From Glaucostegus cemiculus (Eukaryota), in contig CDPCPM010000002.1 in assembly GCA_976551045.1 (NCBI GenBank), positions 3,472,001-3,536,000 of the forward strand: a stretch of DNA of 64,000 bases, written 5' to 3'. Below the pieces are notes generated by a model. It searched no databases and was not told the DNA's origin. It saw only the letters and a program-made list of their open reading frames with translations. How positions within the stretch are numbered: the first letter of the stretch is position 1; every line of letters starts with the position of its first letter. The position numbers were made by a program, and so were the translations under genes. This document shows positions 252 to 55,600 of the stretch, piece by piece.

Positions 252-2268
252 GTATGGAGGGACTGTCCCTTTAAAACATTGATTCCTAGGATGCTATCTA
301 AACTGTTACAGGTTGAGGAGGTTGGTTCCTGATGGCCAGGTGGATCGTGACTTCCCTCGCAGGTATAAGGGAGCCCCCTAACCCCTCTATTTGCATCTGT
401 GTCCCTTTCCACCCAAAGGGGTCACCTGGATGATGGTGTGTTGGGCATTCATGTCGATGAGTGAGTGCCATCCACCTCTGTATGTTCCCCTTCCCCATGT
501 AGAGCTATGGGTATATGTGGCCTCAGGTCTTCTGGGCGGGAAAGAGTGATGGAACAAATGTGCCGGGGGTCCCTGGCCTTCATCCTGTGGGAGGTGGATG
601 GGGTTCTGCCACCCAGTGGGTGAAGGTTCCTGCTGGCAGAGGTGGGATATTTCCTGTCTCAGCAGGACCCGGAGCTGAGCCTTGGGAGCAGGAGAGACTG
701 TTTCGAGTGGGGGAGGAGCAAAGGCAGTGTTGTCGGAGGCAGCCCACATGGTCCAGAGGTTGGGGTCGCCCCTGAGTTGGGCTTCTTCCCAGGGTGGTTG
801 TGGATTTTCCCCTGGCCAGATTCCCCCCCCCCCCCCCCTTCCCCACAAAGCTCTTTCCACAGCGCGTAAATGGCAGAGGTCGGGATCCCACCTGTGCTGG
901 TGCGGTCCACCCCTGTGCGCAGCAGGTCCAAGAATAGCCATTTGCGTGTAAAACGAGGGATTGTGTTTCTAGCCCTCATCTTTGCCCTACAGACCTGGGT
1001 GGGCACCCTTTGCTGCAGTACTCTAGCCCTTCCGTGGGGTGATGGTGTCCTGCACTGTTTTCCCATTAGCCAGGACCACTGGCCTCAAATCGAGACGCAC
1101 GGTGGTGACCAGGTATCCCACTAGCGCTCTGGTCACCATGGTATTTTTTAAAAAGTTGCAAACACGGGCTCCCTCATAAATACCGTCACCAGTGCCCACT
1201 CCCTAATGACCCTGGTGCCCTCACTGACTGTGCTCTATTGTGGTCACCTGTATAAATCCCACTCGAAGGGTAGGGTACTGGAGCCTCACAGCAGTCACTA
1301 CCCGATCCCACAAGGTAGTGCTGCCCTGATCCCTTCCTGTGGTGCCCGTAGAGCTTTGTTGACTCATTGGACAGGCTCCCCAGGGCGTTCACTTCCTGGT
1401 GAGAGAGACTCACGTTGGGGGTCCCTCATCCCACAGTCGGAGCAGCCACGCGGCCAGGTGCTCACCCAGCTGCTGGCGGTACCGATCCGCCAGCTGGGTC
1501 AGCTCCTTGGCTGAGAAATCCCAGCTCTCCGTAGTCTCAGAGGGACTGTGGGCACTTTCCCCTGTGGGGTCCTCATCCTGACTCTCCTCCCTTCCGTGGT
1601 GGACCTGGGACCGTGTGGTGACAGGTTGAGCATGCAGGGGTTCGGGGTGGGGGGGGGGTTTAGTGGGAGGGTGGGTGTAATGGGACCCAGGTTCCTCAGG
1701 CACCCCCTCCTCGTCATTATCCATCCATATATCCCCATCCCCCAGCTATGCGTCCAGTGTTGCCCTGCTGGACCAGGGCTTGAATATTGAGCGGGTCTGG
1801 CTGCACCTGCTGCATTTGGATCAGTCTGCAGGTGACCTCGGTACCTTTGGCCTTGAGGTCGTTGGCTCGGGTCTGGGCAGCCTGGACTGCCTCCTGCAGC
1901 GTACAGCAGCGCTGCTGGAGCACCTCCATCTCCTTGTCTTTCTGCTGACGTGTATTCTGTGTCTGGCCAGTAATCCCGACCTGGCATCTCAGGAGGGAAG
2001 CAAATAGCTAGAGGGCACCCCTTTGACTTCCCTTAGCCTTGGGGAACCCAGACCTCTGAAGGAAAGTGACCATGTGGTGCCCCATTTTCTCACCACGGGT
2101 GTCTAAGTGCTCGGCCCAGTCCACTGGTTTACCGTGGTCCGTCAGCATGCTGGGCAAGCTCCCAAATCCCTTGCTGTCATCAGTCCACCCGGGAATCCTA
2201 TCCTCGGGTGCTTGCACTGGCTTTCTTGCCCCTGTTCCAGTACATCCCTCTCTGCGCCTGTGTTTAAG

Positions 2269-2286
2269 ACCCTGCTTGCAGTGCCA
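2269..2286 (-). other. Primer-binding site, tRNA-Ser-like (TGGCACTGCAAGCAGGGT)
   Basis: Lies 2 nt after the LTR end; equals the copy 2 PBS with two CpG->CpA changes. Confidence 0.8.
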
Positions 2287-52600: not shown

Positions 52601-55600
52601 GCCTATGACCACTGCTGATGATGCCATTAAGCTGGGGCTCCCTGAACTCCGAAAAGGACCCACTGGATCTTGGGCTCCAGTATCCACCTGTGGCTCCCCA
52701 CAGGCTGGTACAGTTGCTGTCTTCCAGTGTTTGACGGTGCCTTGAATCCACACTCGATGAACAGGGGGGAGCACCCAGCACGCAGCACACAGCAGGGACA
52801 GGGACAGCAGGGCCATTGCGGAGACAGGGAGGCTCGAGAGGATGGCCTGCCCTCTGTATTGCACGGCCAGACTGTCCCATGAGAAATGATGACTGCAGCA
52901 GGGTTGGCTGCAGTCAGGCTGGTAAACTGGTGGAATCAGACAGTCCTGGATGATCCACTCGCTGGTGGTACATGTGCAGTGATTACAAAGGAGTACTATA
53001 CCTTTCAGCCCTCTGACCTGGCTGCTCACTTCAGGGACTCAGTGGCTAAAACTCAGAACCAAGGGACCAGCTCCACCAGCACTGCACCTTATGGGAAACA
53101 AGTGTCCGTGTGGGCCACTGGGGGATGTTGGGCTACTGTCACCCACTGACCATTGCCCTCCTTTTGTTGATTATGATTTCTGTATGTCCTGATAGTTCCT
53201 CCCTTGATTTTCAGATCGTCTGACTTCCGAGGGGTGGAATGTTGTGAGAAATCAACATGACTGTCACGTGACAGCAGTAACATTGACCCCCACTGACCAG
53301 AAGTCAGTATTGCTCCTTCTAATCGGAAGTCATCCTCCTGTCAATCAAGGTGCAGCTCCACCCACCCCTCAGGTGGGAGAGTATCCCTTGACCCTAAACC
53401 TGTCTAACCAGTTCTTTTGTCTTTGACCTCCCTTGACCATTGGCTGTGGCAGAGGCTTTTGTCCTTGACCTCTCCACTATTGGCTCTTTCAAATGGTAAC
53501 AGTAAGGCTCCACCCAGCCTTCCAGCACTATAAAAAGGGCTGAGACCCCAGCTCTTTCTCTTTCTACGACCTGGGAGTAGTGAGGTAAAAGTACAGAAAC
53601 TTTCGGTAAGAGTGCCGAGAGTGACTCCACATGGTCAGGGAGTGTTCCACTCAAACTCCGGGTAGTGTTAGAGCCAGTGCTAGGGTGGGCCCAGCACTGT
53701 AGTGTTATAGTCTGAAGTAGTATACTGTTACTGATTACCTGTGTGCATCAGCGTGTGTGTGTGTTTATTTTACCCCTGTTGCGATCCCTCTCTCGTGTCT
53801 CGCGGGTATCCAAGTGTGTGTGTGTGAGTGAATGTACCCCCGTTCCCGTCCATCCTGCCCTGCGTTCTGCGTCTGTAGCTTATAATAAAGTTCTCTTTGT
53901 TAGTAAACCAAACAGTGTCCAGAATTCTTAATACCCCCAAGACCCACACGAACCATTTCCGGGAACACCGATGTAGAACTTTTGGTACTGGTCTGTCAAT
54001 GTCCTTTGCATAAATTTGCTGAATCTAACCAAACTGTGGTCACTGCTTTCAAATTGCTGTCCCACAGCCACACTTTCAACTCGCCCATGCTCATTCTCTA
54101 AATCTGGTGTCAGCTTCTTGTTGGGTTTGTTGTTTAATATATTCTCTTGAATATATTTTAAGAACACCTTTTAAACCCTTTACTCTGTCACAGTCACCAT
54201 TAATGTTTATGTAACTGAAATCATCTACAATTATGGCCTTGTTGTTTTTAGATCTCAGAACTTTAGTCACAAGTTGTTCAATCTCCCTGTGATAGTTAGT
54301 GGTTCTGTAATAAGCATTATGGTCCGTCCACGATTTTCATCTAGACCCGGAACAGAAGATTTTGTTACTAATGACTGATTTCTGTGGTTATTTATAATTA
54401 TTTCCACCCCACTCTTTCTGTGCTCCTCTACCCCTTCTCAATTGTTCTATTACACAAGGGATCATGATTAAGGAGAGTTCCTTTATCTTGCATGTGATAA
54501 TATAGTCATCATAACTACATCCAAGCACACAATCTGAAAATGGTGATGGAAGTTATTCTCAGTTTTTTGCACTATGCACATATTGGTGGTAATTTGTCCC
54601 CTCACACGTAATGTTTTTTTTTCAGAGAAAGTTGACTCTTTGAACTGCCCTGAAATTGGCTTTTTTGAACAATCATTTGTAAGCTGTTTGGACAATAATG
54701 TACAAACTGTTTGGAAAGAAAACCATTTCCAATAGTGTTTTCTAGAATTATTGTAGGGATTCTTGCACAAGACTTCTCAAGCCAGGTCAAAAGGACACAC
54801 TGCACATTCATTGGTCTAAATACCACAGCTGTTCACAATCTGGAGTGCCCATGGAAGCCAACTCTCATCATGTAGTACATCCTTCGATGAATGTTTCTTA
54901 GATGTGCATGTTCCATTTGTTTGGAAAGTTTTGTCAAATAAATTCATGTGTACTAACAGTTATATTAACTTTTATTTTCCAGAAAACAATTTTATACCAC
55001 TTAAAATTTAAGCAACTCAGCCAACGCAATTATTTTGGTAAATCTAAGCAGCGTTAAACCTGTACAATTTACATTATTTTACCATCCATCTAAGATTTCT
55101 CATTTTTTGGTTACATTTTGGGTTTGTCCGTGCACCTTTATGGAAGGATGAAATCATGGAGTTTACTTCCTGTTTCATGATGCATAAAATATCTTAACAA
55201 TGCAGTTCCGAAACTACGTTATAGGATTGGTTAGATTTTACTACAATAGTCTGAGCAGGTTGCACATTGTCTAATGTTGCTGATTTTGTTTGCAGACATG
55301 CCTGCAGAGAGTATAGGATTCACAAGGAGTTGGATCACCCCAGGATAGTCCGACTCTACGATTATTTCTCATTAGATACAGACTCGTAAGTTTCTGTCTT
55401 CATTTGTACTGCGTTTTTGTAGAGCTGAAGTTGGTAAGGTGTTGGTTAATGTTGTCTTTACCCCTTCCACTGAGGCAATAGCCATGTCAAACTTGTGCAA
55501 TGTTATGCTTTCTATTTAAAACAAAAAGACATGAATAATTCCCCTGTTGGGTTGTCCTGTTGGCATGATTTACTGAGAGTGTTCAAGATGGTCACATTTT

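Follow-up and report, generated by a model that had tools for sequence, protein, structure and literature searches.

Two class III proviruses in the window

The DNA analysed here is a stretch of 64,000 nucleotides (contig CDPCPM010000002.1, positions 3,472,001 to 3,536,000 of the forward strand; hereafter the window), which holds part of the host gene TLK2 and two endogenous retroviruses (ERVs), copy 1 and copy 2. Both copies are class III elements and, judged from their sequences, are better called ERV-S-like than ERV-L. It is probable that both are defective proviruses of a likely batoid host and that copy 2 is a non-autonomous deletion derivative that used the enzymes of a helper. The features are collected in Table 1.

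When the whole window was compared with itself, a single direct repeat stood out as almost perfect (97%; 48801-49532 and 53237-53967), the pair of long terminal repeats (LTRs) of copy 2. These LTRs end in TGT...ACA and the element is flanked by a 5-bp target site duplication (TSD), both of which are class III features according to PMC8278194. The primer binding site (PBS) was compared by eye with the human tRNA sequences printed in PMC10359600, a human reference and not the host's tRNA; 16 of its 18 bases are complementary to human tRNA-Ser(CGA) and 12 of 18 to tRNA-Ser(AGA), and 14 of 18 bases agreed for copy 1 in the human tRNA-Ser comparison. The TSD, the PBS, the purine tract and the protease (a Pfam RVP match, E 1.1e-6) that the original prediction had listed for copy 2 were confirmed. 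The motifs GDGDIW and Q.GEH...WLLRLWD were present in both copies, and the zinc knuckle CX2CX4HX4C was absent from every sense frame of both and from all four relatives checked, again as first described.

The gag of copy 2 is interrupted by an in-frame stop at 50110-50112 and a frame change near 51010. An open reading frame (50987-52006) runs from the gag tail into the protease without a stop between them; the same junction is disturbed in copy 1. What remains of the reverse transcriptase (RT) is about 90 residues, 55% identical to gene model P0001 of the stingray Hemitrygon akajei, and the rest of RT, RNase H and the integrase core were not found in copy 2 when ten relatives were used as queries. 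Further downstream, a remnant of the Pol C-terminal tail was detected, for which 4 of 14 Pol tails outscored all 200 shuffles and 2 more outscored 198. Because this tail is recognisable at 51950-52046, we conclude that one deletion of roughly 3 kb removed the middle of pol. The env of copy 2, of the gamma type, is 33-40% identical to gene model P0203 of Hypanus sabinus (E about 1e-16 to 1e-20) and shows at least four frame switches, several stops and no preserved CX6CC. P0203 itself carries a Pfam TLV_coat match (E 5.6e-15), a furin site, an immunosuppressive domain and an intact CX6CC, and its transmembrane subunit (TM) was likened by eye to the TM group of XtERV-S. Neither this env remnant nor the deletion in pol had been noticed before.

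Copy 1 keeps a single LTR and so has no second end at which a TSD or a polypurine tract could be present. This LTR measures 607 bp rather than the 602 bp first given; the 729 bp given for the 5′ LTR of copy 2 was correct. At the junction of protease and RT copy 1 ends in an 18-bp tandem array, whose unit continues its sequence there; the array reflects a recent expansion or, alternatively, an error of assembly. An inverted match of about 2.1 kb between the copies (252-2306 vs 49514-51633) is 71.6% identical over 2153 columns (blastn), and the interiors are collinear, as had been stated, with 75.7% identity over 2007 aligned pairs. The LTRs had been called clearly different, which is true of their 5′ ends, but about 500 bp of their 3′ part are homologous (local score 97.5; 200 shuffles, mean 26.5, maximum 36.5). 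The palindrome TGTCACGTGACA, which we take to be an E-box core, is kept near the otherwise unrelated 5′ ends of both LTR types (at 48826, 53262 and 2863-2874).

Differences between the copies were distributed over the three codon positions as 24/18/37% in gag and 17/11/32% in the protease. The ratio of nonsynonymous to synonymous rates (dN/dS) was 0.14 in 5′ gag, 0.38 in 3′ gag and 0.29 in the protease; off-frame controls gave 0.78 and 1.08. Taken over all, the synonymous divergence was about 0.6 and dN/dS about 0.3. The pile-up at third positions together with dN/dS of 0.14-0.38 therefore shows that the copies split as replicating elements under purifying selection, in keeping with the two subfamilies originally proposed. 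Since the split copy 1 has been damaged by 5 stops at aligned codons and by many indels. The synonymous divergence (dS) itself was 1.6 in 5′ gag (49588-50109) and 0.57 in 3′ gag (50113-51009) and the protease, and recombination may explain this unevenness. One in-frame gag stop stands at the same position in both copies (50110-50112; about 1745 in copy 1). Programmed read-through of this stop was not supported: of 13 comparable codons, 2 became stops in copy 1, which puts the chance of a coincidence at about 15%, and all nine batoid gene models lack an X at that place in gag. Strand-biased hypermutation of copy 1 was also rejected, as changes at GG were symmetric (44 vs 41).

Table 1. Positions and properties of the features located in the window (SU, surface subunit of Env)
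Feature	Position	Strand	Remarks
18-bp tandem array	1-251		perfect; 13.9 copies, 100% identity
Copy 1 interior	252-2288	-	PBS 2269-2286; several stops and frameshifts in gag and protease
Copy 1 5′ LTR	2289-2895	-	607 bp; TGT...ACA; TATA-like TATAAA; palindromic TGTCACGTGACA
TLK2 (tousled-like kinase)	4507-60710	+	11 coding exons located; gene extends past both ends
Left TSD of copy 2	48799-48803	+	CCGAT, 5 bp
Copy 2, whole element	48804-53967	+	complete LTR element with 5-bp TSD
Copy 2 5′ LTR	48804-49532	+	729 bp; TGT...ACA; TATAAA at 49095, AATAAA at 49449
Copy 2 PBS	49535-49552	+	2-base spacer after 5′ LTR
Copy 2 gag	49588-51300	+	ERV-L/S type, without zinc knuckle
Copy 2 protease	51335-51640	+	retropepsin; DTG motif present; Pfam RVP, E 1.1e-6
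Copy 2 RT stub	51638-51915	+	N-terminal, decayed
Copy 2 Pol-tail remnant	51950-52046	+	C-terminal tail of Pol; far side of deletion
Copy 2 env	52470-53200	+	broken, gamma-type (end of SU, TM); match to Hypanus sabinus P0203
Copy 2 polypurine tract	53229-53239	+	directly 5′ of 3′ LTR
Copy 2 3′ LTR	53240-53967	+	728 bp; TGT...ACA
Right TSD of copy 2	53968-53972	+	CCGAT, 5 bp

Relatives and trees support a class III placement

A HMMER search with gag among 1.84 billion representatives gave 189 relatives at E 0.001 or better, and 25 of the 150 listed were looked up. Their named hosts were rays, frogs, turtles, a snake, birds, a sturgeon and a pipefish, and three were named Fv1-like by NCBI; this label was found on gag relatives in Narcine, Hemitrygon, Huso and a pipefish. 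The named relatives at least 55% identical were all batoid (Hemitrygon akajei, Pristis pectinata and Hypanus sabinus; the gag of the window and the Pristis gene model share 61% identity), which supports indirectly the cartilaginous host that had been suggested. The capsid pattern W-x-x-R-x-W-D-x-G fits the class III rows and none of the orthoretrovirus rows in Fig S6 of PMC8278194. A PDB sequence search with gag gave no matches. For an AlphaFold model (pLDDT, the predicted local confidence, 83) the best match was the foamy virus capsid (Z 5.9, 146 residues, root-mean-square deviation 5.1), with the Arc, PNMA, MLV and RSV capsids scoring below it, so the predicted fold would agree weakly with a class III placement. 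Two batoid gene models (P0002 and P0142) fuse this gag to C3a receptor-like and TRIM host genes, and these fusions may be annotation artefacts. The best gag match (P0122) and the best non-batoid RT match (P0003) lie on one 6537-bp ENA contig, which likely represents one class III element with a dUTPase.

The RT of P0001, in which the YIDD motif of the region deleted from copy 2 is present, retrieved class III pol of amphibians, fishes, turtles, birds and mouse at 40-54% identity. Within the RT core, identity to class III rows (the 32 best aligned, Hemitrygon excluded) is 45-56%, against 24-29% to 9 Ty3/Gypsy and NYNRIN-like rows, which form a long separate branch; the relatives' RT is thus not grouped with Metaviridae. 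In the PDB the RT was nearer to MLV (E 1e-43) and foamy virus (1e-35) than to Ty3 (1e-19). An origin from a Ty3/Gypsy, Loki-type or epsilon-like element would accord with the ESM Atlas, where the nearest gag clusters are retrotransposon gag sets (0.92; Fv1 at 0.89), and with the presence of Arc and PNMA among the capsid fold matches. Both RT comparisons and the gamma-type env in the family speak against such an origin, and we give it practically no credence.

RT trees were built from 55 rows out of about 170 RT matches; 14 of the 55 were dropped from one tree as partial, chimeric or redundant, and 27 of the 55 from the other. Among the rows, P0009, P0023 and P0024 were identified as MuERV-L, XtERV-S and a chicken ERV by the motifs of PMC8278194 and by cluster names; a HERV-S protein is not among them. 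The protease-RT piece of the window grouped with Hemitrygon akajei P0001 (99/92) and P0330 (95/96), and under two models the RT of these two joined MuERV-L, XtERV-S and the chicken ERV in a starred clade (100/94 and 95/86). In both trees the batoid pair was sister to the group of MuERV-L and the ERV-S-like elements (82/76 and 93/87) and was not nested in it. Co-divergence of the viruses with their hosts was rejected, as the mouse lies outside bichir, lungfish, frog and chicken in the RT tree. Taken together, the trees of close relatives, the protease-RT piece and the capsid pattern upheld the class III, ERV-L/S-like assignment. ERV-L elements have no env, and copy 2 holds an env remnant; the gamma-type env with immunosuppressive domain and CX6CC that marks ERV-S is intact in P0203 and has a decayed homologue in copy 2.

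It is also conceivable that the family belongs to clade Huo as a branch related to SnRV, outside the ERV-L/ERV-S group. Class III ERVs of anamniotes were termed 'SnRV-related' in the anamniote survey of Chen et al. (bioRxiv 10.1101/2021.11.23.469661), lineage I of the elephant shark clusters with SnRV, and the RT trees here contain no SnRV row. The starred clade and the class III capsid pattern argue against this, as do two whale-shark elements compared by eye: Rh_ty_ERV2, adjacent to SnRV, has a zinc-knuckle gag unlike that of the window, and Rh_ty_ERV3, beside HERV-L, shares its gag type. We consider an SnRV-related origin very unlikely.

Copy 2 as a probable non-autonomous derivative

The two LTRs of copy 2 were compared over 721 pairs. 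They differ by 2 isolated substitutions, one indel of 7 bases next to 3 mismatches, and 2 slips in simple repeats, and none of 16 CpG sites has changed. The divergence is 0.3-0.7% (2 to 5 of 721 positions), which corresponds to an insertion 6-16 million years (My) ago if the rate that Han 2015 assumed for sharks is used and 1.4-3.5 My ago at 1e-9. The lineage had been called active; this is true only insofar as copy 2 was inserted some 1-16 My ago. Both copies are defective, and there is no evidence of present-day activity of either.

The coding remnants of copy 2 have decayed to very different degrees. Of the columns conserved in the family, 19 of 33 are lost in the RT stub (0-3 in relatives), 5 of 27 in the protease (0-5 in relatives) and 12 of 54 in gag (0-14 in relatives), and the loss in the stub differs from that in the protease and in gag (Fisher p 0.003 and 0.001). 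Such uneven decay within an element with young LTRs favours a non-autonomous lineage for copy 2. We propose that the founder of the family would have been an enveloped ERV-S-like virus, one lineage of which lost the function of pol and env and retained its cis signals and, for a time, a useful Gag and protease. It would have continued to spread in the germline with RT and integrase supplied in trans by an intact helper. Each round of replication would have reset the LTRs to identity, and the useless RT stub and env would have gone on decaying. Copy 2 would then be a re-insertion made by the helper a few million years ago, and copy 1 would belong to a sister subfamily and have inserted earlier, in antisense. 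Hemitrygon akajei carries a sister class III family with long gag-pol models (the P0282 cluster, thirteen gene models at 90% identity, five of them named Fv1-like by NCBI); the Pol of P0282 has the order PR-RT-tether-RNase H-IN by its Pfam list, and a dUTPase is absent.

Copy 2 could also belong to the same virus family and be old, deleted and decayed in place, with its LTRs homogenised later by gene conversion. The interiors of both copies are equally depleted in CpG (observed/expected 0.33), CpG losses between them run both ways (30 vs 28, 18 kept), and gag of copy 2 has two lesions, all of which would suit decay in place. However, such decay expects equal damage, and the RT stub and the adjoining protease are damaged unequally; the TSD is intact, and conversion would have to span the whole 720 bp. 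This history seems rather unlikely to us.

Several points count against a class III, non-autonomous origin of copy 2. A single gene model, P0203, underlies the env match, and this model itself joins the end of gag to env. Pfam gave no match on the gag or env of the window by themselves, and Foldseek searches of PDB and BFVD gave no match at E 0.001 or better. In the RT placement stingray elements stand in for the window, where no more than about 90 residues of RT are left, and the trees contain no SnRV, foamy, gamma or epsilon rows, none having been found in scans of IMG/VR viral contigs. In approximately unbiased (AU) tests, neither attachment of the outgroup on the batoid branch (p 0.155) nor a position of the batoids inside the ERV-S-like group (p 0.40) was rejected, and a grouping of the batoids with MuERV-L was rejected only narrowly (p 0.049). 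Furthermore, the relatives used to score conserved columns are not mutually independent, gene conversion between the LTRs could conceal a greater age of copy 2, and non-autonomous spread is read from a single copy for which we infer the helper.

Comparison with known elements

Among the closest described systems is XtERV-S of Xenopus tropicalis, the prototype of class III gag-pol combined with a class I env and a serine PBS (Yedavalli 2021, PMC8278194). It resembles the present family in its gamma-type TM, serine PBS, LTRs of about 700 bp with TGT...ACA ends, 5-bp TSD and lack of a zinc knuckle, and it has internally deleted derivatives within the X. tropicalis genome; over the protease-RT piece of the window the identity is 41%. 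In contrast to copy 2, XtERV-S is intact, has tRNA-Ser(AGA/TGA) as primer and a dUTPase-like segment, and its deleted copies retain only the 5′ end of gag, whereas copy 2 retains gag and protease; the batoid rows also stand on a separate branch in the RT trees.

Class III ERVs form clade Huo and occur in all major vertebrate lineages (Xu 2018, PMC6001957). In the same source, whale-shark Rh_ty_ERV3 and the turtle elements Ap_sp_ERV17 and Pe_si_ERV2 have gag, protease and PBS of a like type (by eye). Going by the order of the labels in S2 Fig alone, they are neighbours of HERVL, Murine_ERVL and HERVS; they come from other hosts and may be related to the window family. ERV-SA.a-Ppe (Chen et al., bioRxiv 10.1101/2021.11.23.469661, a survey with 6 cartilaginous fish) combines a class III Pol with a class I gamma-type Env and may be identical to the window family; 'Ppe' may stand for Pristis pectinata. 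This kind of virus has thus already been reported in a shark, frogs and turtles. Calling the lineage poorly described was an overstatement, given the whale-shark ERV in Xu 2018 and the class III pol with class I env in Chen's anamniote survey. The literature searched contained no account of this batoid subfamily or of a derivative in rays that retains gag and protease; Wang and Han 2023 (PMC10435555), PMC12287698, PMC10536682 and PMC4977317, where consulted, yielded nothing specific. The non-autonomous reading of copy 2 may be the sole new point.

The family shares with HERV-S and other ERV-S elements the serine PBS and gamma-type env, and its Hemitrygon gag-pol relative lacks a dUTPase; it differs in that, in both RT trees, the batoid pair stands as sister to the MuERV-L and ERV-S-like group and not nested in it. 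With MuERV-L and HERV-L it shares the gag type, the 5-bp TSD and, in P0001, the YIDD RT. ERV-L elements are primed by leucine tRNA, carry a dUTPase and lack env; copy 2 has env debris. MaLRs are mammalian and have no protease. They are pol-less and env-less relatives with homology to ERV-L gag (PMC11359688), and by analogy copy 2 would work like such an element; it differs in retaining protease, an RT stub and env debris. A wider proposal, which we put forward tentatively and hold to be possible rather than probable, is that rays harbour a class III branch sister to ERV-L and ERV-S and, within it, a MaLR-like parasite that lost polymerase and envelope, kept Gag and protease under selection and was carried by a helper's RT and integrase during the past few million years, an independent origin of the MaLR type outside mammals. 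If the deleted form is multi-copy, it would be a clean non-mammalian parallel to MaLR evolution. Rays are added to the animals that have seen recent multiplication of ERV-L/S-type viruses. That the family formerly carried a gamma-type env is relevant to the question of whether mammalian ERV-L became env-less secondarily.

Host gene and other repeats

The host gene was taken to be TLK2 rather than TLK1 on the basis of residue differences. Its kinase exon at 57314-57484 matches human TLK2 (PDB 5o0y) with E 1.8e-33. Both copies had been placed inside TLK2. This holds for copy 2, a sense insertion bracketed by the exons at about 44111-44202 and 55296-55385. Copy 1 is antisense and lies upstream of the exon at about 4507, with which TLK2 first appears in the window; the interval 2896-4620 showed no exon before it. 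Since the exon at about 4507 is an internal one, we infer that copy 1 is within the gene as well. The polyadenylation signals of copy 2 at 49449 and 53884 lie on the sense strand within a kinase-domain intron of TLK2, and a sense LTR pair with two such signals in the kinase-coding part might affect splicing. Copy 2 could serve as a population marker if it is unfixed.

Two insertions less than 54 kb apart at one gene had raised the idea that the family targets TLK2 or germline-active genes. The copies are unlike in subfamily, orientation and damage; young gamma-env ERVs in three amphibians insert at random relative to genes; and about 300 copies in a genome of 2.3-4 Gb yield about one such 64-kb window. 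Targeting thus found no support and appears highly improbable, a few hundred copies per genome being enough to give such a window, and the sharing of one gene is likely due to chance.

Rfam gave no matches across the window. A 230-bp repeat resembling a short interspersed element occurs in four copies that are 80-84% identical (3771-4001, 17976-18206, 42374-42480 and 44702-44947). The end of an open reading frame resembling that of a long interspersed element, presumably CR1-like and without a Pfam match, lies at 7204-8046, and fragments at about 15 other places are 27-58% identical to the 280-residue frame at 7204.

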